A stretch of 64,000 bases of DNA, taken from the NCBI RefSeq assembly GCF_003790525.1, contig NZ_CP033635.1; one strand, written 5' to 3'. The stretch comes from Escherichia coli. Its GTDB lineage: Bacteria; Pseudomonadota; Gammaproteobacteria; Enterobacterales; Enterobacteriaceae. This document shows, one piece after another, positions 2,647-12,631 of the stretch (within the stretch, counting starts at the first letter, position 1; the number at the start of each line of letters is the position of its first letter). The notes beneath the pieces were generated by a model. It was not told the origin of the DNA. It ran no database searches and saw only the letters and a list, made by a program, of their open reading frames with translations. A program made the position numbers and the translations under genes.

Positions 2647-2665
2647 GTGCTTTCCCCGCCTCGCC
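2647..2665 (-). other. cos: cos cohesive-end sequence (P2 type)
   Basis: GTGCTTTCCCCGCCTCGCC is the reverse complement of GGCGAGGCGGGGAAAGCAC, the 19-nt P2 cohesive end as I recall it. It lies just downstream of Q as in P2. Confidence 0.8.
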
Positions 2666-2892
2666 CGCCCGCTTCATGGGTCGGTTTTGATGCAATTCCA
2701 AAAGCCGTCCAAACTCTCTTAGGCTAAATGTCCAACGAGAAAATAGTTCTTTGAATGTGAATGCATTTTAATGCAGAGTTATGCCCAGCATTTTTGTACA
2801 CTTCGATGTATCAAATGCGCTGCAAACGATCAAATATGGATGTTTTATCAAGCATCCCCCAAAAGATATTTACATCATCCCATGAGGTTAAG

Positions 2893-3966
2893 ATGGATAA
2901 CAAAATCGTAGAAATTGAGACAAATAAGCTTGATTTTGACCCTAAAAACCCACGTTTCTTTCGTCTCAATGATGCCAGTAACGCTGCAACAGTCATTGAG
3001 GAAATGTTAGATGACGAAAGTGTCCACGATCTAATGCTATCAATCGGTCAGCAAGGTTACTTTCCTGGAGAACCTTTATTGGCAGTAAAAAGCAATGGAA
3101 ACTACATCGTGGTTGAGGGAAACAGACGCTTAGCTGCTGTAAAGTTGCTCAATGGAGATCTGCTTCCTCCAAAAAGAAAACTTAAAGGTGTGCAAGAAAT
3201 CATTGATGATACTACCAATAAACCTAAGAAGCTTCCCTGCATCATTTATGAAAACCGAGAGGATGTACTGAGATATATCGGTTATCGTCATATAACTGGG
3301 GTCAAAGAATGGGACTCATTATCTAAAGCCAAATACCTTAAAGAGTTATGTGATACTTTTTATTCACATGAGCCTAAAGAGATAGTATTAAAAAATCTGG
3401 CTCGTGAGATTGGGAGTAAACCACATTATGTTGCAACACTTCTCACTGCACTGAACTTATATGAAGTCGCGCATGACCATGAGTTTTTTAATTTACCCAT
3501 GAAGGCTTCTGACGTGGAATTTTCATATATAACCACAGCTTTGGGATATTCAAAAATCACAAACTGGTTAGGTCTACAGGATAAAAAGGATTTTTTAGAC
3601 CCAAATTTAAATGAAGAAAACCTTAAGCGTTTATTCTCTTGGTTTTTTGTGCCTGACCAACAAGGTAGAACCATCATCGGTGAGTCTCGAAGAATAAAAG
3701 ATATTGCAGCAGTGGTTGAGAAACCCGAAGCAATTGAAATTCTCATGAAAAGTTCAAACTTGGATGAAGCATATCTATATACCAGCGGAGAAAGAGAAGC
3801 ATTAGATAAAGCACTAAACGCAGCTAGTGTTAAATTAAGAGTAGTTTGGGATATGCTACTTAAAGCTAAAGAATTAACATTAGAGCATGAAGAGGCTGCA
3901 TCTGAAATTTTTGAGATGTCAAAAAATATTAGAAATCAGATCAGAAGCAAAAGGGAGGATGATTGA
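2893..3966 (+). CDS. ParB/Srx N-terminal-domain protein (357 aa), cargo gene 1
   Basis: Start chosen at ATG 2893 with GAGG at 2885-2888. Motifs KLDFDPKNPRF and YIVVEGNRRLAAVKLL resemble ParB box I/II (GxxR arginine patch), with a helical C-terminal half. Codon usage is AT-rich, unlike the flanking phage genes. Confidence 0.7.
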   Translation: MDNKIVEIETNKLDFDPKNPRFFRLNDASNAATVIEEMLDDESVHDLMLSIGQQGYFPGEPLLAVKSNGNYIVVEGNRRLAAVKLLNGDLLPPKRKLKGVQEIIDDTTNKPKKLPCIIYENREDVLRYIGYRHITGVKEWDSLSKAKYLKELCDTFYSHEPKEIVLKNLAREIGSKPHYVATLLTALNLYEVAHDHEFFNLPMKASDVEFSYITTALGYSKITNWLGLQDKKDFLDPNLNEENLKRLFSWFFVPDQQGRTIIGESRRIKDIAAVVEKPEAIEILMKSSNLDEAYLYTSGEREALDKALNAASVKLRVVWDMLLKAKELTLEHEEAASEIFEMSKNIRNQIRSKREDD

Positions 3967-3970
3967 GATT

Positions 3971-4996
3971 ATGATTACAAATCTTGATTCAATGCCTTCT
4001 AATGAGCCTTATTTATGGGCTGATTATATTGAGATATTGGCCTTAACTAATATCGACAGGTCATTCAGTCGAGGAGACCTATATAGCACACTGCAAGCTC
4101 AACCCGAAGCAGTACTAGCTGAAACAGATGAAGCAGAAGAAGAGGGCGTTTATGATGTTGATGATGAAAATGATACGCCTGTACGCAAGAGAACAAAACG
4201 AAGTGTTAGTCGAGCATATACTGACAGAAAGTGGAGCTATGCGATAGGCTTCATACGACAACGCATTGATTTATTTGGGGATAGTTACCCTTTTACTTTA
4301 TCAGAAGACAACGATACTGTAGAGTTACGTGATATATCAGAAAAGCCACTGGAACATTTAGAAAGACTATATTTAGCTTTACTAATCTGTGCTAACATAA
4401 AATATGTCAACATAATGAGCAGAAGAGAGATAACGCGCAGTTTTGAACTAATTAGTTTACCTATTTTTGAAAGCCTAATGCCTAGCGGTAGCATAATAAA
4501 AGCATGCTGGGCTTCTGGTGGTCAAGCGGCCCCTTACACTGGAACTCTATATAATAAATTTAAGAGTATTGCTTCCGATATCCGTTGCACAGCGAACTTC
4601 AAAGAACGAGATTTCAGTCGAGGAAATAGTGGTGACGGAGGCCTTGACATAATTGCCTGGCATCCAATGGGAGATCAACGAGATGCCATCCCTATTTCTT
4701 TTGTTCAGTGTGGCTGTTCTCAAGAAGAGTGGGAAGCGAAGCAGCTTGAGGCCTCACCTGCGATGCTCTACAGTAAATTCCCCGTAGCTCACCGATGGGC
4801 AACTTATTATTTCTTACCTCAAGATCTACGATGGATAGATGGTGAGTGGGCGCATAAAAATAAGTTAGGCGATGCTATTTTTGTTGATCGCCTAAGATTA
4901 ATCAATTTAACCAGAGCATCTGATAATATTGATCACAGTCAAAATATTAGCTATCTAGATATCATCCTTGATCCTTCCAGCGCGATCGCTGCTTAA
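3971..4996 (+). CDS. PD-(D/E)xK-like (Mrr-type) putative nuclease with an acidic N-terminal region (341 aa; alternative start 3959), cargo gene 2
   Basis: AAGGGAGG at 3951-3958 lies inside the end of gene 1. ATG 3959 overlaps the gene 1 TGA (3964-3966) and ATG 3971 follows it. FELISLPIFESL ... GNSGDGGLDIIAW ... ISFVQCGCS resembles the Mrr catalytic core E..D..QxK, but with Gly in place of Lys. Confidence 0.55.
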   Translation: MITNLDSMPSNEPYLWADYIEILALTNIDRSFSRGDLYSTLQAQPEAVLAETDEAEEEGVYDVDDENDTPVRKRTKRSVSRAYTDRKWSYAIGFIRQRIDLFGDSYPFTLSEDNDTVELRDISEKPLEHLERLYLALLICANIKYVNIMSRREITRSFELISLPIFESLMPSGSIIKACWASGGQAAPYTGTLYNKFKSIASDIRCTANFKERDFSRGNSGDGGLDIIAWHPMGDQRDAIPISFVQCGCSQEEWEAKQLEASPAMLYSKFPVAHRWATYYFLPQDLRWIDGEWAHKNKLGDAIFVDRLRLINLTRASDNIDHSQNISYLDIILDPSSAIAA

Positions 4997-5931
4997 TCCC
5001 ATAAATCTGGAAGGTTTCTAGCAACCGCCTCAAACAATGGAGGCGGTACTGCATTACCTACCACAGTATATTTCATATTAATAGAAGCCCGTTCAGTTTC
5101 TGGGAAAATTAAATCCCCAAAACCTTGTAAAATAGCAGCCTCTCGATAGCTAAACCTACGAGCTGGTGCATCCGAAGTAAATTGCCACTTATCAGGTCCC
5201 AATTTTTCTAATGTTGGACTTATTGGATGTAGAGGCATATGTCTAGGATTTGCAACAATTGTTTTAGATATCTGATCCCAATCTTGCCTACGGTTTCGCG
5301 ATAGATAATACCAATGAAAATCGGCGTCATAAAACTCGCCAACAGGCCAAACAGGCATATGCCCAATAGCATCACGAATTGTGGAATATGGTGTCAAACC
5401 ATCACCATGTGTTGGTTTTGGAAATTTGTATGTAATACCGTAGTCCTTTCGTATTCCTACGATAAAGATTCGCTTCCTATCTTGGGATACCCCATAATGG
5501 GACGCATTCAGAATTTGCGAGCTTACTGTATAACCTGCTTCTTCGAAAACTTTGAATTGATCCTTTAATAAATGCTCAAAGTTACGCCTTACCATACCAG
5601 AGACATTCTCTACAATGAATGCTTTTGGCTTAATTTTACTCAAAGCACGGGCAAACTCTAAATATAGTGTATTAATCTTTCTATCTGCCTTCCTTGCCCC
5701 ACCTTGACTAAATCCTTGGCAAGGATAGCATCCGATGAGCAACTCAGCAGAAGGGAACGACTGGAGCCCTGAGATATCGCCCAAAATGTAGTCAGTTTCA
5801 GGATGGTTTTCTAAGTAAACGTCCCTTGCGTAAGGCAAAATATCATTTGCCATAAGCACATTGAAACCTGCGTTCAAAACTCCCGCATCAGAACCACCAC
5901 ATCCAGAAAAAAGTGAAACTACAGTTGGCAT
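4993..5931 (-). CDS. DNA (cytosine-5) methyltransferase, 312 aa, cargo gene 3
   Basis: All canonical C5-MTase motifs are readable: FSGCGG (I), PCQGFS (IV), ENV (VI), QDRKRIFIVG (VIII), RRFSYREAAILQGF (IX-like) and GNAVPPPL (X). AGGAGG at 5937-5942 lies 5 nt upstream of the ATG. Confidence 0.92.
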   Translation of the reverse strand: MPTVVSLFSGCGGSDAGVLNAGFNVLMANDILPYARDVYLENHPETDYILGDISGLQSFPSAELLIGCYPCQGFSQGGARKADRKINTLYLEFARALSKIKPKAFIVENVSGMVRRNFEHLLKDQFKVFEEAGYTVSSQILNASHYGVSQDRKRIFIVGIRKDYGITYKFPKPTHGDGLTPYSTIRDAIGHMPVWPVGEFYDADFHWYYLSRNRRQDWDQISKTIVANPRHMPLHPISPTLEKLGPDKWQFTSDAPARRFSYREAAILQGFGDLIFPETERASINMKYTVVGNAVPPPLFEAVARNLPDLWD

Positions 5932-5957
5932 TGACCCCTCCTAAAAACCGACCGCGT

Positions 5958-5963
5958 ATTATA
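5958..5963 (-). promoter_or_regulatory. Candidate -10 hexamer (TATAAT) for the methyltransferase gene
   Basis: A perfect TATAAT on the minus strand lies ~27 nt upstream of the ATG. The -35 region is poor (CTTTTC). Confidence 0.35.
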
Positions 5964-6173
5964 GCGAAACACCCCGTTGGGAAAAGCTAGATTTTGCCAA
6001 GTCTTGATATTCTCACGTTTTAGTAGTTGTGGCCATCTTTAACGAGAAAAAGATAAAATTGACTTCTCATTAATTTTCAATAGGTTTAATTGTAAGCTCA
6101 AACTAACGCCTCGCGACACTCGTTATTCAACCCCGCCAGCCCTGAAAACAAGTTTCACGACTGGCGGCGTTCT

Positions 6174-6380
6174 CTATCGTCTGCGTTGTGGTGGCGCAAC
6201 TCTGGACTGACCGATATGGTTAAACCGCCCGTAATTATCCCGGACTATTTCGGCACACCCGACCAGCTCATCGGGCGTCAGATTTTCGTTGACCATAATC
6301 CGCTGTAAACGCTGAACAATAGCCATCAGCTTGATATTTTTAGTTTTATGGTGCGGTATCTCGCCTGGTATTCTGTGCAT
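6174..6380 (-). CDS. Small hypothetical protein (68 aa), last gene of the early/replication operon
   Basis: Its ATG overlaps the upstream stop as TAATG at 6378-6382. No recognisable motif. Confidence 0.45.
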   Translation of the reverse strand: MHRIPGEIPHHKTKNIKLMAIVQRLQRIMVNENLTPDELVGCAEIVRDNYGRFNHIGQSRVAPPQRRR

Positions 6381-6832
6381 TATCCAAGCCACCCGTTTTG
6401 CTGTGCACGCTCCATCTGTTCATCTGAATAGTTCCATGCTCCATCCGTGGCAACCATTGCCCCGCCAGACATCCCCGTCTCTGGTTCATACATAACAGCA
6501 AGGCCGAGCTGATGCATAATTTCATGATTAATTCTGAATACCAGGCCACGCTCACTAAGTTCTTTCCAGTTCACAATCTCATATGCGCCTGTATTAAGCA
6601 GCTCAATACTTAGCAAGACATAATCTTCCAGCCAGTCTGACAGGTCAGTAACATCTGTTATCCGGGCTTCAACATTTCGCCCCGTATACACACCCTGCAC
6701 CCATTCATACAAAATCAACGTGTCCCCGCGCTCATAATTACGGTCATTTTTCCGGAACTCTGCACGTTTCTTTCCTTCCAGCACAAGGTCGAAATATTTT
6801 GCGTGCAGCTTTACCTCGTGAATTTTTGCCAT
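6380..6832 (-). CDS. ASCH/DUF3850-like domain protein with a C-terminal extension carrying an HExxH motif (150 aa)
   Basis: The N-terminus IHEVKLHAKYFDLVLEGKKRAEFRKNDRNYERGDTLILYEW fits the DUF3850 pattern as I recall it. HEIMH lies in the C-terminal part. The ATG overlaps the gpA stop (TAATG at 6830-6834). Confidence 0.6.
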   Translation of the reverse strand: MAKIHEVKLHAKYFDLVLEGKKRAEFRKNDRNYERGDTLILYEWVQGVYTGRNVEARITDVTDLSDWLEDYVLLSIELLNTGAYEIVNWKELSERGLVFRINHEIMHQLGLAVMYEPETGMSGGAMVATDGAWNYSDEQMERAQQNGWLG

Positions 6833-9117
6833 TATGTCCACTCCATTACTGTTGAGAATCCCGGCCACTCATCAGCGACCGGATACGTGAATTTTTTCCC
6901 GTCATAATTTACGGTCGCGCCACGCGCCAGCGCCTCAAGCTCCCATCGCTGCGGCCTGATACCGTTCTGAGCAAGGTCAACGCGGATACGGGTAATTTGC
7001 GTTCGTTCCGACCGGGTCAGTCTGGCCGATGGCGCTATTTCATGTGGTTTTAACGGGCTTCCGTTTCTCTGCTGACGATTTGGTGTTCTCAGTTCGTGTT
7101 TTAATGCACCTCTGAGCGCCCTCACGACCTCTGGCTCATTCCATTCGATAACACCGTCATCAACCAGATTAAGCACGGCTGCGGCATGTTCATAAGGTGT
7201 GGGAGCCGGTAACGAAGTATCACTGCCGGTGAGCTTTCCACAGTTATTGACAGGACTCCGAGGCGCGGCGATGCCGCTTTTTAAAGTCAAAGGCTCAACG
7301 ACCGGAACTTTCGGCACAATGCGCCAGTCCGTCGTTCTGGTGATATGAATATGACGCGCGCCGAGATGCGGCGCGTAAATACCGACCACTCTCTCGACTT
7401 CTTCCTCGTACTCGTTAACGTCACTCGACGGGCTACGGGCAACCCTGACAGTCTGACAATCGCGCGGGACATTTGCCCCACCCTGCGCGCTGATATACAA
7501 CGCAAAATCACCACTGTCTGCGGCAGCGCGAGCAGCCTCGACGCGTTCGTCAAACTCATCAGCAATACTGACGCCGCGAGGTAATTTGCGTAGTTCACGG
7601 TAAGCCCCCATTGTCGGTAGGCCAACCGTTTTAAATTGCGGAATGCGCCACGTTGACGCCCATGCGGTAACAGCCGCGGCAGTGTCTTTCAGCGGCCTGC
7701 CGGTATCGTTATCGAGCTGACCATCCAGTGCATAGCCGTCGATGTTTTTTGAAATGTATTTCGCGATATACCCCGCAGCACCGCCCCGATTAAGGTGTTT
7801 TGCCTGAAAACGGTTTCGCGCGGCTCCTCTTTCGTCGCCATCCTCTTTGAGCGCATAGCGACGCATGATTTCGATAATCTGGTTACGCTGGCGCGAATTA
7901 CAAAAAAGCATCATATGCCAGTGCGGCGTTCCGTCGTGGTGTGGCTCGACGACACGCAAACCGTAGACCTGTAAATCATTATCCTTGAATGCCGTGCGCA
8001 TCAGGCTCCAGATACGGCAGAGATAACGCTGCGCATCCTTTGGATTAAATGCCTCATCGTTCCAGCCGTGATTAAGCTGCACGGTTTTACTTTCGCCTTT
8101 TCCTACCTGACGTGTCGGGTGATACTTTGACGGCGCGGTCAGCGTGATAAACATCCCCACATCACCCTCTGCAGCGGCGTAACGCTCAATACCGGCAATG
8201 GTGTTCATCAGCTCCATCCGGCGAATTTCAGGATTAGAAATACTGCCCATCACCTTACTGATAAGGTCGATGCGCTCGCCGGTTTCCCTGTTTTCAAGGT
8301 CACACGATTTAAGAAATTCCAGATTTGCCTGGCGGCGCGCACGCACATCACGAATGGCATGTTTACTGGCATAAGGTGAACGGTCTTTATTGACCTCCCC
8401 GACAGCAATCAGTAACGCCTCATGCCAGCGCATACGCTGGCCTTTAAGCTGTCTAATCCACCACTCATCGTTAAACAGGCGGGCAATGGCAGAATATGCC
8501 TGCCTCGTGGTCATCTGCCCTTTACGGTATTTTCTCCAGTACAGCGGGGAAATATTGAAAGCACGTGCAGCGCCAGCAACATGACCATACAGGTGAGCCT
8601 GCGCCTCATCCGTAAACAGCGATTCTTTTTCGCCATGGGCATCCACCCAGGCATCGCAGAGTTCCTCATACATCATGAAAAGCTGCGATGAGATACGGGC
8701 GGCAAACTTTTTCAGCTCCTTGTCATTCATTCCCGGCAGGCGCGCATAGTGGTCACGCTCTGCCAGAAACAGCAACGACGCGTCGGTGTTCATTTCATGG
8801 CGCTGATTCACACGCTCAATGCGCGGCCATAAACGACGCTGAAAAGTGGATGTGAGGAAATAAAACCCGTGCACCGGGCTTTTATTGCGCCGGATGTAGT
8901 CATAGCGTGAAGTAAACAGCGAGCGCAAAAAGTAAGGCAGGCGGTTAATCGTGGATAAAACACCTTGCACCTGACGCATCTCATCACGTGTAAGGGGTCT
9001 TTCGCGCCCGACGGCCTCGCGTGGCGCGTTCCATGCATAAGCACCGGTAAACATCTTACCGGTGCCTGCGGCAAATGCTGACGGAGGGACAAAACGCCCG
9101 GAGGCTTTAACGGCCAT
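6832..9117 (-). CDS. A: Replication initiation endonuclease, P2 gpA-like (761 aa from ATG 9117; the ORF is open to 9159)
   Basis: HUH-type motif EPHHDGTPHWHMMLF and tyrosine motif AGYIAKYISKN are present. The N-terminus MAVKASGRFVPPSAF and the length match my memory of P2 A. Confidence 0.9.
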   Translation of the reverse strand: MAVKASGRFVPPSAFAAGTGKMFTGAYAWNAPREAVGRERPLTRDEMRQVQGVLSTINRLPYFLRSLFTSRYDYIRRNKSPVHGFYFLTSTFQRRLWPRIERVNQRHEMNTDASLLFLAERDHYARLPGMNDKELKKFAARISSQLFMMYEELCDAWVDAHGEKESLFTDEAQAHLYGHVAGAARAFNISPLYWRKYRKGQMTTRQAYSAIARLFNDEWWIRQLKGQRMRWHEALLIAVGEVNKDRSPYASKHAIRDVRARRQANLEFLKSCDLENRETGERIDLISKVMGSISNPEIRRMELMNTIAGIERYAAAEGDVGMFITLTAPSKYHPTRQVGKGESKTVQLNHGWNDEAFNPKDAQRYLCRIWSLMRTAFKDNDLQVYGLRVVEPHHDGTPHWHMMLFCNSRQRNQIIEIMRRYALKEDGDERGAARNRFQAKHLNRGGAAGYIAKYISKNIDGYALDGQLDNDTGRPLKDTAAAVTAWASTWRIPQFKTVGLPTMGAYRELRKLPRGVSIADEFDERVEAARAAADSGDFALYISAQGGANVPRDCQTVRVARSPSSDVNEYEEEVERVVGIYAPHLGARHIHITRTTDWRIVPKVPVVEPLTLKSGIAAPRSPVNNCGKLTGSDTSLPAPTPYEHAAAVLNLVDDGVIEWNEPEVVRALRGALKHELRTPNRQQRNGSPLKPHEIAPSARLTRSERTQITRIRVDLAQNGIRPQRWELEALARGATVNYDGKKFTYPVADEWPGFSTVMEWT

Positions 9118-9382
9118 ATGAGCCAAAAGCCTCTGAACAACGCCTGCTGAGTTGCTCAACCTGCGCGTTTAAATCAGCAAAAGACTTTGCGCTTCCGGTC
9201 AGAATATCGTGATGCATCAGGCCGGAAACGAGCTGGCTTAATTTCGGGTAATAACCAACCACCGCCAGCCATTCCTGACCGGCGTTTTTACCGCTTTCAG
9301 CTCTCTTTTTCTCGTGGAGAATAAACTGAAAGCTGTCACTGGTAACGACATAACGTTCGCCAATTTCAATACGAATACTCAT
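9107..9382 (-). CDS. Small P2-type early-operon protein, unknown function (91 aa)
   Basis: ATGA overlap with the upstream gene at 9379-9382. Position is equivalent to the P2 orf80-83 group. Confidence 0.6.
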   Translation of the reverse strand: MSIRIEIGERYVVTSDSFQFILHEKKRAESGKNAGQEWLAVVGYYPKLSQLVSGLMHHDILTGSAKSFADLNAQVEQLSRRCSEAFGSYGR

Positions 9383-9603
9383 GCCGTTCTCCGGTAATGT
9401 TTGTTTTTTGCTTCAAAGACTGACTGACAGGAAACACAACGCGTGGCTGACGGATAAGCCGCACGACGGGCAGCAGGTATTGGCGCGTCACACTCTTCGC
9501 AAACCAGCGCAGAAGCACCGCAATGTTTTACCCTTGCCGCGTTAATCTGGCGCTCCAGTAATTCAGCCTGTTGTTCCTGAATAAAATCTACGTTGTCCGG
9601 CAT
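9379..9603 (-). CDS. TraR/DksA-type C4 zinc-finger protein (74 aa)
   Basis: CEECDAPIP...RCVSCQ forms a CxxC-N17-CxxC motif. TAATG coupling at 9601-9605. Confidence 0.75.
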   Translation of the reverse strand: MPDNVDFIQEQQAELLERQINAARVKHCGASALVCEECDAPIPAARRAAYPSATRCVSCQSVFEAKNKHYRRTA

Positions 9604-9905
9604 TACCAGTTCCTTTTGTCGTTAAGGTTTTTAAATTCATCAGCGCAATAGCTGGCGATTTCTGTCGTTAATTTCGTCAGTTCATCCACGGAGGAGATTT
9701 GCTTGTGAAACACAGCGCGTTTAACAAGTAAATTGACCACATCAGACAGGAGGTTTAATTCGTTCTGATAAATCGCGATAACAGACTCAGTTATTTCGCG
9801 TTTTTCTTTATCAAGACCAAGTTGAATAAGAGACAAATCGCCATTTTTCATAACGGCGATTTTTAGGGCGTTATTCAGTAATACAACTGAACGAGAACAG
9901 GACAT
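9603..9905 (-). CDS. Hypothetical early-operon protein (100 aa)
   Basis: ATG 9905 overlaps the upstream TGA (TGATG). No recognisable motif. Confidence 0.5.
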   Translation of the reverse strand: MSCSRSVVLLNNALKIAVMKNGDLSLIQLGLDKEKREITESVIAIYQNELNLLSDVVNLLVKRAVFHKQISSVDELTKLTTEIASYCADEFKNLNDKRNW

Positions 9906-10129
9906 CAAAGCACCTCCCCGCGAGACAATCCGATATTGTGAAATTTTTCCGACTCCTGACTGAGCAGCTCGACTATCTCCACGCGGGATAACTCCGCCTT
10001 TGTGATGTGGCGAATCATGGCGTCAAGATGAGAAGAAAAGCGCGTCGCTGCGTCGGCCTGTGCTTCGGTTCTGGCCTGTTGCAGCAGTAATGCGTATTTA
10101 CCGCACTGATTTTCAGAAACTGTATGCAT
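9905..10129 (-). CDS. Hypothetical early-operon protein (74 aa)
   Basis: Compact ORF in the operon between B and A. No recognisable motif. Confidence 0.5.
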
Positions 10130-10192
10130 GACTTTCTCCAGGCAAAAAGAAGCCCCGCACGATTAAGTGCGTTAAAAACTCTGGTTAATTAC

Positions 10193-10693
10193 TTAATGCA
10201 GATATTGCTCTGGTTTTACCGACGTCAGAATTGTCGGTGCATACTCAAACAGGCTGAATAATTCACGTAATGCACGGAATAAAGCATCACGCCAGTAACA
10301 TGATTCTTCATTAATTCGCCAGTATGGCTGGTTGAATTCTTTTTCAGTCAGTCGTGCGTGCATAAATAAAGTGCGACGCTGACTGACTGTTAAAAAACTA
10401 ATATATGCATACTCACTTGCGCCAACCTGACGGCGTTTTGAGAATGCGCCACGCAATTCATCAATTGCACAAACCAGTCGTTCACGTTCGACGTCGTTCA
10501 TTTCTTCAAAACGCATCGTTGCGTGACGCTGTTTTAACTGTGCATGAAAGCAAACCGTTAGCCGTTCGCGCTCCATCATCTGATTATAATAATCACATGT
10601 ATCCTGCCAGCGAGGGACGGCAAGATGCTTGCCAATTATCCGGCGCATAGCTGCTGGCTGTTTTTCAACGAGATTAAGCGTCATCACTGTCAT
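10193..10693 (-). CDS. B: Replication protein B (helicase-loader-like), P2 gpB-like, 166 aa
   Basis: Same length and position as P2 B. The sequence MTVMTLNLVEKQPAAMRRIIGKHLAVPRWQD matches my memory of gpB. Confidence 0.8.
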   Translation of the reverse strand: MTVMTLNLVEKQPAAMRRIIGKHLAVPRWQDTCDYYNQMMERERLTVCFHAQLKQRHATMRFEEMNDVERERLVCAIDELRGAFSKRRQVGASEYAYISFLTVSQRRTLFMHARLTEKEFNQPYWRINEESCYWRDALFRALRELFSLFEYAPTILTSVKPEQYLH

Positions 10694-10860
10694 TTCCAGC
10701 CCCTCCGGCTTTTCAGAAAGGTCAGAGCCTTTTTTAACGGACTCTGTTTTTTGGTGCGGATAATGATTCCCTTACGCCCCTTACCGTGGGTGATGGTGAA
10801 GTCAATCGCCCTGGGGCTTTCGTTACGCAGTAACTGAGCAATACAACGCGGTTCACTCAT
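10690..10860 (-). CDS. Small protein between cox and B (56 aa from ATG 10860)
   Basis: The ATG lies 2 nt after the cox stop. The stop overlaps the B start. Confidence 0.5.
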   Translation of the reverse strand: MSEPRCIAQLLRNESPRAIDFTITHGKGRKGIIIRTKKQSPLKKALTFLKSRRGWK

Positions 10861-10862
10861 AA

Positions 10863-11135
10863 TCACAACCCCATCCACAAAAGCCATGCATCACGCTGTT
10901 CAACTGGTCGGTTATAAAACGCCTCTCGTACAGCGCGATTAAACTCTGGAATGAAAACCCACTTCTCACCGACACGAGCGTTCGGCTTACTTGGATCACG
11001 AAGCTCAATAACTGGCAACTTATTCTCTTTTACCATCTTGACTACAGCCGTTTCTGGCTTACCAAGTAACTCTGCAAACTTAACCGTATGTACCGCATCA
11101 ATCGGGTACTGAATCACATAGTCATTGACTTCCAT
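10863..11135 (-). CDS. cox: Cox-like excisionase / early repressor (90 aa)
   Basis: First gene of the early operon, divergent from C. The C-terminal ...WVFIPEFN...RDAWLLWMGL resembles the P2 Cox tail (...DGWLMWLGL). Confidence 0.75.
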   Translation of the reverse strand: MEVNDYVIQYPIDAVHTVKFAELLGKPETAVVKMVKENKLPVIELRDPSKPNARVGEKWVFIPEFNRAVREAFYNRPVEQRDAWLLWMGL

Positions 11136-11258
11136 TGATTAGCCCTTTTTGCTTTCGTGTTACCCTTATTAGATCCAGTCCCTTCTAGGTCGCACCTGTC
11201 CTTTCTAGGGACTGGCTAACACACTCAAAAGGTCACCAATACACAACCTTTTGACGGG

Positions 11259-11287
11259 AATATAAGTCACCAATAGGTTACTGTCAA
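11259..11287 (-). promoter_or_regulatory. Early promoter (Pe-like) reading toward cox
   Basis: On the minus strand: TTGACA (11287-11282), a 17-nt spacer, then TATATT (11264-11259). GTCACCAATA direct repeats at 11232-11241 and 11266-11275 flank the -10. Confidence 0.65.
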
Positions 11288-11581
11288 ATGCAGACATTCG
11301 AAAAACTGAAAGCGATTAGGAAAGCAGAAGGCTTAACACAGGCGAAATTCAGCGAAATTAGCGGGATAGCTCTAGGAACAGTCAAAAATTACGAAAGTGG
11401 GCATAAAGACCCTGGTCTCAGCATCGTTATGCGAGTCACAAATACGCCTTTATTTAAAAAATATACGCTCTGGTTAATGACTGGTGATACGTCACCACAA
11501 GCTGGTCAGATCGCGCCGGCTCTCGCACACATTGGGCAAAAACCAACAGAATCAGACCACTCCGAAAAACAGACTGGTTAA
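11288..11581 (+). CDS. C: Immunity repressor, P2 C-like HTH protein (97 aa)
   Basis: An XRE-type HTH is present (LTQAKFSEISGIALGTVKNYESG). The C-terminal KYTLWLMTG...GQIAPALAHIGQ matches the conserved P2 C tail as I recall it. Confidence 0.8.
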   Translation: MQTFEKLKAIRKAEGLTQAKFSEISGIALGTVKNYESGHKDPGLSIVMRVTNTPLFKKYTLWLMTGDTSPQAGQIAPALAHIGQKPTESDHSEKQTG

Positions 11582-11650
11582 CACTCTATAAACATTACAT
11601 TTTCACCATTTGTTACCAAGATGGTGAATACAGCGTCAGAGGGCTTTCTT

Positions 11651-12631
11651 ATGTCAATTAAGAAGCTCGATGATGGACGCTATGAAGTGGACATTAGACC
11701 TCGCGGTCGCGACGGAAAACGCATCCGCAGGAAATTTGAAAGAAAAGCTGAGGCTGTAGCATTTGAGCGATACACAATCGCCTACGCCAGCCAGAAAGAA
11801 TGGGCAGGTCAGCGAGCAGATCGCAGAACTTTGAGTGAGTTGCTGAACATCTGGTGGAAATATCACGGGCAAAACCACGAGCATGGAACAAAAGAGTTTA
11901 ATCATCTGCTCAAAACCATCAGCGGCATAGGTGATATACCAGTGAGCCGGATGAGCAAAAGAGCTTTGATGGATTATCGTTCCATGCGACTACGTGATGG
12001 TATCAGTGCCGCAACGATAAACCGTGACATGTACCGATTATCCGGCATGTTCACAAAATTAATTCAATTGGATGAATTTTCCGGGCAACACCCAATTCAC
12101 GGACTGCCGCCACTGGCGGAGGCCAACCCTGAAATGACGTTCCTGGAAAAAGCAGAAATCGAAAAACTGTTAAATGTTTTGGATGGTGATGACTTACTTG
12201 TCGCACTTTTATGTCTGAGCACTGGAGGAAGATGGACGGAAGTTGCCACGCTAAAACCAGCACAGATTACAAATTGCAGGGTTACCTTCCTGAAAACCAA
12301 AAACGGTAAAAAGCGAACCGTGCCGATTTCTGAGGAACTGGAGAAAAAAGTTAAAGAGGAGGCCAGCGCTAAATTATTCAAAGTTGATTATGAGAAGTTT
12401 TGCGGGATTTTACGCAGAGTGAAGCCAGATATACCACCCAATCAGGCAACCCACATCCTGCGGCATACATTCGCAAGCCATTTCATGATGAATGGGGGCA
12501 ATATAATCGCACTGCAACAGATTCTGGGACATGCGAGCATTCAGCAGACGATGGCCTATGCGCACCTTGCGCCTGACTACCTGCAAAATGCCGTCGCGCT
12601 GAATCCTCTAAAAGGCGGAGTGACGTTATAA
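11651..12631 (+). CDS. int: Tyrosine integrase, P2 Int-like (326 aa from ATG 11651)
   Basis: The N-terminus MSIKKLDDGRYEVDIRPRGRDGKRIRRKF parallels P2 Int. The catalytic HILRHTFASHF ... LGHASIQQTMAYAHL (R-H-R-Y) is present. Confidence 0.9.
   Translation: MSIKKLDDGRYEVDIRPRGRDGKRIRRKFERKAEAVAFERYTIAYASQKEWAGQRADRRTLSELLNIWWKYHGQNHEHGTKEFNHLLKTISGIGDIPVSRMSKRALMDYRSMRLRDGISAATINRDMYRLSGMFTKLIQLDEFSGQHPIHGLPPLAEANPEMTFLEKAEIEKLLNVLDGDDLLVALLCLSTGGRWTEVATLKPAQITNCRVTFLKTKNGKKRTVPISEELEKKVKEEASAKLFKVDYEKFCGILRRVKPDIPPNQATHILRHTFASHFMMNGGNIIALQQILGHASIQQTMAYAHLAPDYLQNAVALNPLKGGVTL

Follow-up and report, generated by a model that had tools for sequence, protein, structure and literature searches.

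Two described systems are precedents for the locus reported here. PD-lambda-5 was recovered in a functional selection, affected all but one of the ten phages tested, required a host without the mrr region for its cloning, and was presented by its authors as 'ParB/HEPN, methyltransferase', a compacted prophage system of restriction-modification plus abortive infection (RM+Abi) (Vassallo et al. 2022). In DndI, a ParB-like NTPase and a nuclease form one protein that cleaves unmodified DNA and lets go of self DNA upon ATP hydrolysis stimulated by phosphorothioate. Here, we examined a cassette of about 3.5 kb in Escherichia coli (assembly GCF_003790525.1, contig NZ_CP033635.1) that lies at positions 2666-6173 of a 64,000-nt stretch, the whole of which is referred to below as the window. 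It encodes a ParB-like protein (A), a protein modelled with a restriction-endonuclease fold (B) and a C5 cytosine methyltransferase (M). Comparative genomics suggests that the cassette is a self-contained, horizontally mobile, three-gene defence module of the restriction-modification (RM) type, and we put the probability of this reading at roughly 0.62. The reading draws on the linkage of the genes, their association with dnd clusters and with Vsr, the predicted folds, the mobility of the cassette, the precedents above, the pattern of insertion sequence (IS) disruptions, and the evolutionary rates of the three proteins. Its logic is RM-like, and hence less exotic than the term 'undescribed defence module', used in a preliminary description of this DNA, would suggest.

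The gene layout proposed in that description was reproduced with the same coordinates (Table 1). A, B and M are the only open reading frames (ORFs) of more than 300 aa in the interval, all others being at most 106 aa long and in alternative frames. A and B are co-directional and closely spaced, with B beginning 4 nt past the A stop codon, and M is convergent, its stop codon overlapping that of B by 4 nt. The Prokaryotic Genome Annotation Pipeline (PGAP) starts B at an alternative ATG, which gives an 8-nt overlap with A, and the annotation of phage Wphi uses longer upstream starts (2761 and 3887); homologue alignments favour 2893 and 3971. The names given by PGAP are 'ParB N-terminal domain-containing protein' for A, 'hypothetical protein' for B and 'DNA cytosine methyltransferase' for M.

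The end of the phage Wphi genome (AY135739; gp98, gp96 and mth) matches the interval at 99.9-100% identity, and a 'Peduovirus P2' record is identical to it as well. The insert is the Wphi orf98-orf96-mth cassette, of which the sequence has long been catalogued. Of 5426 complete E. coli genomes, 103 carried the cassette at an identity of at least 99%, nearly all of the copies being chromosomal; a second allele occurred in 36 further genomes, so that both alleles together reach 139/5426 (~2.6%). The inventory of P2 hotspots by Rousset et al. (2022; Table S5A) contains both WP_000368931 (A) and WP_001143634 (M), as well as a related arrangement, 'DNA_methylase + hypothetical + ParBc', and the table of tested systems in the same study has no ParB and no DNA_methylase entry. 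Our full-text literature searches found no named system of ParB, nuclease and cytosine methylase, no PDC-M38, and no functional work on Wphi orf96 or orf98. No named system matches in the databases searched, although a very recent name is conceivable, but the sequence was already known from Wphi and from Table S5A.

The linkage of the three genes was evaluated at 72 loci, namely those with a B relative in a scan of one genome per species; they belong to the Proteobacteria, Campylobacterota, Bacteroidota, Chloroflexota, Acidobacteriota, Armatimonadota, and Verrucomicrobiota. Neighbouring genes were sought among six-frame ORFs, by profile search for A and B and with the single sequence of M as query for the methylase. 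A lies directly 5' of B at 68 of the 72 loci, typically with a gap of 4 nt or a short overlap, and of the four remaining loci, three lie at the edge of a contig and one encodes a degraded B. A C5-methylase is found within 300 bp of the pair at 54 loci, with a gap between B and the methylase of less than 20 bp in most of these, and at a distance of 3.2 kb at five more, where a 1044-aa N6_Mtase-like protein and often a Vsr gene stand between. The methylase is convergent in Proteobacteria, co-directional and 3' of the pair in Bacteroidota, Chloroflexota and Acidobacteriota, and 5' of it at three loci. Since the linkage is kept despite these changes of gene order over several phyla, it points to a functional unit rather than to hitch-hiking. 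The preliminary description had also considered that the genes might occur independently of each other in other genomes, which is not what the 72 loci show.

A link with DNA modification is also seen where the C5-methylase is missing. At eight of the 72 loci, dnd phosphorothioation genes (DndB, DndC, DndD or DndH, in varying combinations) take its place; these pairs are the most divergent A-B relatives that we detected (B 24-28% identical), and they lie at about 4700-7000 of the locus where the flanks are complete. At two of them (L074 and L080), a GmrSD/DndI-like gene flanks A-B on one side and a HEPN_Swt1 or Mrr_cat gene on the other. Vsr (very-short-patch repair) proteins are companions of 5-methylcytosine (5mC) methylases, and a Vsr gene is present at several loci. 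Neither a C5-methylase nor a dnd gene was found at five loci (L038, L047, L060, L065, and L076), three of which are on contigs that are short or limited by their edge.

The three genes also move together. In E. coli and in Enterobacter P2-like prophages they occupy the cos hotspot of P2, and in Methylomonas and Ramlibacter they are found at non-prophage chromosomal sites. The phiCTX-like Pseudomonas phage vB_PaeM-D14A carries A-B-M (39%, 30% and 63% identical; 4998-7965) between a transcriptional regulator and tail gene D, a site other than the cos hotspot.

Several variant loci were observed in addition. A five-gene form (L003, L029-L032, and L039; ~4700-11600) consists of A, B and usually Vsr, followed on the opposite strand by the 1044-aa protein, weakly N6_Mtase/UPF0020-like, and a C5-methylase 41-44% identical to M; the 1044-aa protein may contribute a second component to restriction or modification. 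In three Enterobacter P2-like prophages (L006-L008), a DinI-like gene and two small ORFs (3736-4503) separate the portal gene from A, and a D12 adenine methylase lies beside gpA in the early operon (10494-11522), together with a PAPS_reduct-domain gene in L006; counting the methylase of the cassette, each of these prophages thus has two DNA methylases of different kinds. The hotspot of Yersinia phage L-413C holds only a 330-aa A homologue (34% identical; 207-1199) that overlaps orf91, with neither B nor a methylase in the hotspot, and resembles what a deletion in the cassette would leave behind. A comparable A-only match was obtained for Yersinia phage HQ103.

With regard to A, residues 1-151 match 24 PD-Lambda-5_A profiles of PADLOC (best E-value 2.5e-24), and residues 41-327 match positions 58-342 (285/715) of the PADLOC candidate PDC-M38A (E 6.5e-25). 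The NCBIfam scan returned a weak match to TIGR00180, and PHROGs assigns A to phrog_3694, of unknown function. No Pfam match above threshold was found for A in a direct scan; many A homologues carry precomputed PF02195 matches. A fold search was used because sequence matches to solved structures were marginal (E 0.14-0.6). An AlphaFold model built on 34 homologues (predicted local distance difference test score, pLDDT, 88) matched ParB-type CTP-binding proteins. Three segments are invariant in the homologue alignment, FDPxNPRF, EGNRRLAAxKLLN and YRHITG..WD.LSKAxYL. We take FDPxNPRF to resemble ParB Box I and the arginine pair of GNRR to resemble Box II (GERR), presumably the regions that hold CTP, and by this analogy nucleotide binding by A is plausible. 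The ParB N-domain fold and the arginine-pair motif (GxRR) place A in the ParB/Srx superfamily, and together with the PD-Lambda-5_A matches they bear out its earlier designation as ParB-like.

B belongs to an unannotated family, with zero matches in Pfam, NCBIfam and PADLOC-DB 2.0, and corresponds to phrog_3984, of unknown function. We collected 1481 representatives of the family (50% identity, E<=1e-3), nearly all of them standalone proteins of 300-370 aa. A structure search with the model of B indicated a winged helix joined to a PD-(D/E)xK restriction-endonuclease fold, with N.BspD6I, SdaI, NgoMIV, Cfr10I and Bse634I as the best matches; B thus resembles SdaI or a Type IIS enzyme in combining a winged-helix module with a PD-(D/E)xK module. 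It was placed in PD-(D/E)xK by fold rather than by sequence because comparison with a Mrr_cat protein aligned only 21 columns. The residues G221, D222, G223, D226, Q246, C247, G248, C249 and K257 are invariant, and E260 is kept in at least 90% of the sequences. The earlier 'Mrr-like' label survives with respect to the GDGG(I/L)D motif and the fold, but Pfam Mrr_cat is unmatched and the motif lysine is a glycine. As a Mrr or Mrr_cat (PF04471) Type IV enzyme B was rejected, given the missing Pfam match, the absent lysine and the 21 columns aligned. Judging from the alignment, the invariant K257 on the next helix may stand in for the motif lysine, as in some restriction enzymes.

M is a complete C5-methyltransferase by its sequence, in agreement with the preliminary description. 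It matches PF00145 (E 9.9e-62) and TIGR00675 dcm (E 1.8e-54), and its translation shows the motifs FSGCGG, PCQ, ENV, QDRKR and GNAVP. The closest solved relative is M.HaeIII, which aligns over the full length including the variable region (E 1.6e-48), and the automatic annotation of one phage record labels M as M.BspRI. Both are GGCC enzymes, and M possibly methylates GGCC as well, which we regard as a lead rather than a result. Among the palindromic 4-mers of 51 cassettes, GGCC was the most depleted, though weakly (observed/expected ratio, O/E, 0.73), next to 0.74 for GATC, and the flanks were depleted of GGCC too (0.86). As a separate observation, CCGG does not occur in the window cassette, where base composition predicts 5.4 sites, and is over-represented in flanking prophage DNA (24 vs 16.2 expected, and 151 vs 118.3 expected). 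CCGG is not depleted over 51 related cassettes (O/E 0.91), and its absence from the window cassette may be due to chance.

The three proteins evolve at different rates. Proteobacterial relatives are 60-84% identical to M, 38-64% to A and 30-53% to B, so that M changes most slowly and B most rapidly, a pattern that fits an arms race on the restriction side. The second E. coli allele, that of the vB_EcoM-12474 phages, encodes proteins that are 98% (M), 32% (A) and 25% (B) identical to those of the window; we compared it at two loci, phage vB_EcoM-12474II and E. coli O145 RM12367-C1. Nucleotide homology between the alleles covers window positions 4994-6157, that is, M and its 5' spacer, and starts at the junction of the B and M stop codons. 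Given this start of the homology, the segment from cos to the 3' end of M, and with it the A-B pair, was exchanged in one piece while the methylase stayed constant.

Three of the 103 identical copies are disrupted by IS elements, which lie within B twice (IS5) and just 5' of A once (IS2, in the 2666-2892 region of strain E2), and never in M. Such an asymmetry would be expected if the restriction side is dispensable and the protective side is not; the three cases are anecdotal. The portal gene is truncated beside the cassette in all three strains (JXZ9A32M, E2, and FXCREC123), and the cassette thus persists in decayed prophages.

On the RM-type reading, M would methylate cytosine at C5 within a short motif, possibly GGCC, on host and prophage DNA. 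A and B, produced in a fixed ratio from a translationally coupled operon, would form the restriction side. A would be a DNA-binding protein of the ParB/Srx fold, probably nucleotide-gated, that reads the mark, and B a nuclease made of a winged helix and a PD-(D/E)xK domain; together they would attack incoming unmarked DNA, and in this way protect the cell against phages. Methylated self DNA would be spared, either through blocked binding or through release of A triggered by the mark, as proposed by analogy with the ParB-like domains of DndI and SspE and phosphorothioate. What the analysis establishes is the identities and folds of the genes, their conserved residues and the obligatory linkage of A-B to DNA modification; formation of an A-B complex, dependence on NTP, nuclease activity, the methylated motif and phage protection are predictions. 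A more far-reaching proposal, which we put forward only tentatively, is that A-B is a portable 'modification-reader' restriction chassis. In it, A would scan DNA as a nucleotide-gated clamp of the ParB type, and B would be licensed according to whether a covalent mark (5mC at most loci, phosphorothioate in dnd clusters) is present or absent, with the pair being swappable against an unchanged methylase. If true, it would represent a new mechanistic class of RM and not a variant of Type II. Two features bear on the question of sequence versus mark recognition: the pairing of A-B with 5mC in some genomes and with phosphorothioate clusters in others, and the occurrence of different A-B alleles with one methylase. 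At 3.5 kb, the cassette is a compact system in which to study how a ParB/Srx-type domain reads DNA modification. It is also common, being carried by the classical coliphage Wphi and by E. coli at the frequency given above, with relatives in several phyla, and it may explain exclusion phenotypes or transformation barriers in Wphi-type lysogens.

Our arguments for an RM-type module need to be weighed against several points. We found no wet-lab test of this cassette in the literature. Compared with solved structures, the profile of A gave the marginal matches mentioned above, which were to Noc, ParB and Spo0J. In an hhalign comparison of B with a Mrr_cat protein, the GDGGID stretch was the only part aligned (22% probability), and glycine replaces the lysine of the Mrr-type D...(E/Q)xK motif (QCG in B); catalysis by B would, as judged from its sequence, depend on K257. 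The finding of a near-identical M beside two dissimilar A-B alleles is compatible with recognition by A-B of a sequence, of the mark, or of neither. At L038, L047 and L065 there is no modification gene in the DNA examined. Finally, A could be a regulator and not a part of the enzyme, which leads to the main rival of the RM-type reading.

In that rival, the cassette would be a classical Type II RM system with an added regulator: B alone would cut, having a winged-helix recognition domain of its own beside the PD-(D/E)xK cleavage domain, M would be the cognate methylase, and A would be a KorB/ParB-type controller that times or limits B expression or silences the operon in the lysogen. The best structural matches of B are indeed autonomous Type II enzymes with recognition and catalytic domains, and a third, regulatory gene is frequent in RM systems. 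However, A is a protein of 357 aa that is better conserved than B, keeps invariant motifs resembling a nucleotide pocket and is coupled to B nearly everywhere, all of which fits a stoichiometric subunit. A regulator specific for the methylase would also make little sense in the dnd clusters in which the pair occurs, and ParB-like domains are catalytic or sensor parts in GmrSD, SspE, DndI, and PD-lambda-5. We consider the combination of a regulatory A with an autonomous B unlikely.

Less likely still is abortive infection, or guarding, in which A-B would be a latent toxin restrained by methylation. Blocking or titration of M by a phage, or a triggering phage factor, would turn it against host DNA, and the cell would die. 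PD-lambda-5, which has the same ParB N-domain, was described in such terms (RM+Abi; Vassallo et al. 2022), but its HEPN RNase region is replaced here by a DNase fold. A terminator scan found no terminator-like site between the convergent B and M, which may suggest tightly balanced expression, and the three IS insertions in or 5' of A-B, with none in M, would fit self-toxicity of A-B, although three cases remain anecdotal. The sequence gives nothing that separates abortive infection from direct restriction.

It is improbable that the cassette is not primarily anti-phage and serves as an addiction module stabilising the prophage or as a ParB-type partition or epigenetic module for the phage life cycle. 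RM systems do act as addiction modules, and many of the E. coli copies examined lie beside a truncated portal gene, in degraded prophages that retain the cassette; addiction and defence are, however, mutually compatible. Putative partition systems occupy about a quarter of P2 hotspots (Rousset et al. 2022), but those in the table of that study are StbA/Plasmid_stab_B systems with another arrangement, and neither ParA nor a centromere-like repeat accompanies A in the cassette. Moreover, the trio is also found on chromosomes outside prophages and in defence or dnd islands. The last alternative, two separate functions sharing one hotspot (an orphan anti-restriction methylase, M, beside a modification-dependent Type IV-like nuclease, A-B), recalls the orphan C5-methylases common in phages and the A-B relatives flanked by GmrSD-like and HEPN or Mrr genes at L074 and L080, but is very improbable, as the C5-methylase adjoins A-B at 54/72 loci, with few-base gaps and in three gene orders, far above what a shared hotspot would produce, and as a 5mC-dependent nuclease beside an active 5mC methylase would be self-destructive.

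The location of the cassette agrees with the preliminary description, which placed it in the P2 backbone next to cos (Table 1). Terminase and portal genes lie on one side of the insert, and on the other a small ORF is followed by a DUF3850/ASCH orf91-like gene and the gpA replication endonuclease. The sequence at the proposed cos site is the reverse complement of GGCGAGGCGGGGAAAGCAC, which we take to be the P2 cohesive end, and the first base of the linear Peduovirus record OU784549 is window position 2666 exactly. In the composition profile, G+C content is 0.397 within the interval, compared with 0.559 at 1-2665 and 0.489 at 6174-12000, and counts made earlier on single 60-nt lines were identical when recomputed (19/60 at 2881-2940, 22/60 at 5581-5640, and 38/60 at 841-900). 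Immediately right of the insert, up to ~6900, G+C content is 0.46-0.50, under the prophage average. A scan for promoter-like sites that included 2666-2892 and 5932-6173 found 8, not above the 9.2 expected by chance.

Table 1 Features of the cassette and its borders, in window coordinates.
Feature	Position	Strand	Remarks
P2-type cos cohesive-end sequence, left boundary of the hotspot	2647-2665		GTGCTTTCCCCGCCTCGCC
Leader and putative A-B promoter region	2666-2892	+	G+C drop begins here (composition profile)
Gene A (Wphi gp98, WP_000368931), 357 aa	2893-3966	+	ATG to TGA; GAGG 8 nt 5' of ATG; ParB N-domain, helix-turn-helix-like middle, long C-terminal helices
Gene B (Wphi gp96, WP_000570053), 341 aa	3971-4996	+	ATG to TAA; alternative start 3959; unannotated family, presumed effector
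Gene M (Wphi mth, WP_001143634), 312 aa	4993-5931	-	ATG to TAA; C5 cytosine DNA methyltransferase, PF00145
Intergenic stretch 5' of M, presumed M promoter	5932-6173	-	G+C 0.426; right edge of the low-G+C insert
Small 72-aa ORF between orf91-like gene and cassette	6174-6392	-	No family match
DUF3850/ASCH + DUF7415 protein, orf91 position	6380-6868	-	Backbone gene; its start overlaps the gpA end

When the cassette is compared with named systems, no end-to-end match is found, in line with the preliminary description, which recognised no named system: B is unmatched in the three databases searched, and A matches PD-Lambda-5_A over ~150 residues only. The best PADLOC profile of M is DruM2|DruM (E 1e-110), which recalls Druantia type II. 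That assignment was rejected; there is no DruE helicase, DruF or DruG, A and B match no Dru profile, and the cassette measures only 3.5 kb. A ParABS partition system was likewise rejected, with no ATPase among the three genes of the interval and no parS-like repeats. No ParA-like gene appeared in the gene tables and neighbour scans of the related loci examined, none of which was a search aimed at ParA. The Box I-like FDPxNPRF and the Box II-like GNRR pair bring A close to the ParB/KorB/Noc clamps, from which it differs in its C-terminal half, in its context of nuclease and methylase, and in the marginal level of the similarity.

Several features are shared with Type II RM systems. An M.HaeIII-like methylase adjoins a candidate endonuclease of the PD-(D/E)xK fold in convergent orientation, with Vsr at some loci, and the placing of the methylase gene next to the endonuclease gene, as in Type II systems, is seen both in the overlapping stop codons of the window and at the 54 loci above. 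It differs from Type II RM in having a conserved and obligatory third protein, of the ParB/Srx fold, translationally coupled to the nuclease, and in that B falls in no annotated endonuclease family and does not have the usual motif lysine.

The coupling of a ParB-superfamily NTPase-type domain to a nuclease is shared with DndI, SspE, GmrSD, and BrxU. DndI and SspE use DNA modification to tell self from non-self, and divergent A-B pairs sit in dnd clusters; the partner mark in the window is, however, 5mC and not phosphorothioate. Those four are single chains of DUF262 and DUF1524 (His-Me/HNH), whereas the fold of B is PD-(D/E)xK and not HNH, and GmrSD is modification-dependent and has no cognate methylase. 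An assignment to GmrSD, DndI or SspE was rejected, since neither A nor B matches PF03235 or PF07510 in Pfam; the GmrSD-like genes beside A-B at L074 and L080 match both.

PD-lambda-5 itself was rejected as an assignment because its HEPN region and its D12 methylase are both missing here. PD-Lambda-5_A runs on into the HEPN region (440-500 aa), whereas the alignments of A end at profile position ~140-170, and the effector of the cassette is instead a separate protein of the PD-(D/E)xK fold, without a PADLOC match. PD-Lambda-5_B is a D12-class N6-adenine methylase (PF02086), whereas M is a C5 enzyme; PD-Lambda-5_B was absent among the best 25 of the 63 PADLOC matches of M. In the PD-lambda-5 systems of Marinobacter phage AS1 and Vibrio phage ValB1MD-2, the whole PD-Lambda-5_A profile is covered and the methylases match PF02086. 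In ValB1MD-2 (2923-5362), the A component is split into a ParB protein of 252 aa and a HEPN protein of 265 aa, followed by the D12 adenine methylase, a three-gene layout parallel to that of the window cassette. PD-lambda-5 is nonetheless the closest named system, having only the ParB N-domain and the overall logic in common with the cassette, that of a compact prophage-borne set in which a protein with a ParB N-domain is accompanied by an effector and by a DNA methyltransferase. If the cassette restricts phages, it would add a widespread family to the group of systems, PD-lambda-5, SspE, DndI and GmrSD among them, that join a ParB/Srx domain, a nuclease and a DNA mark.

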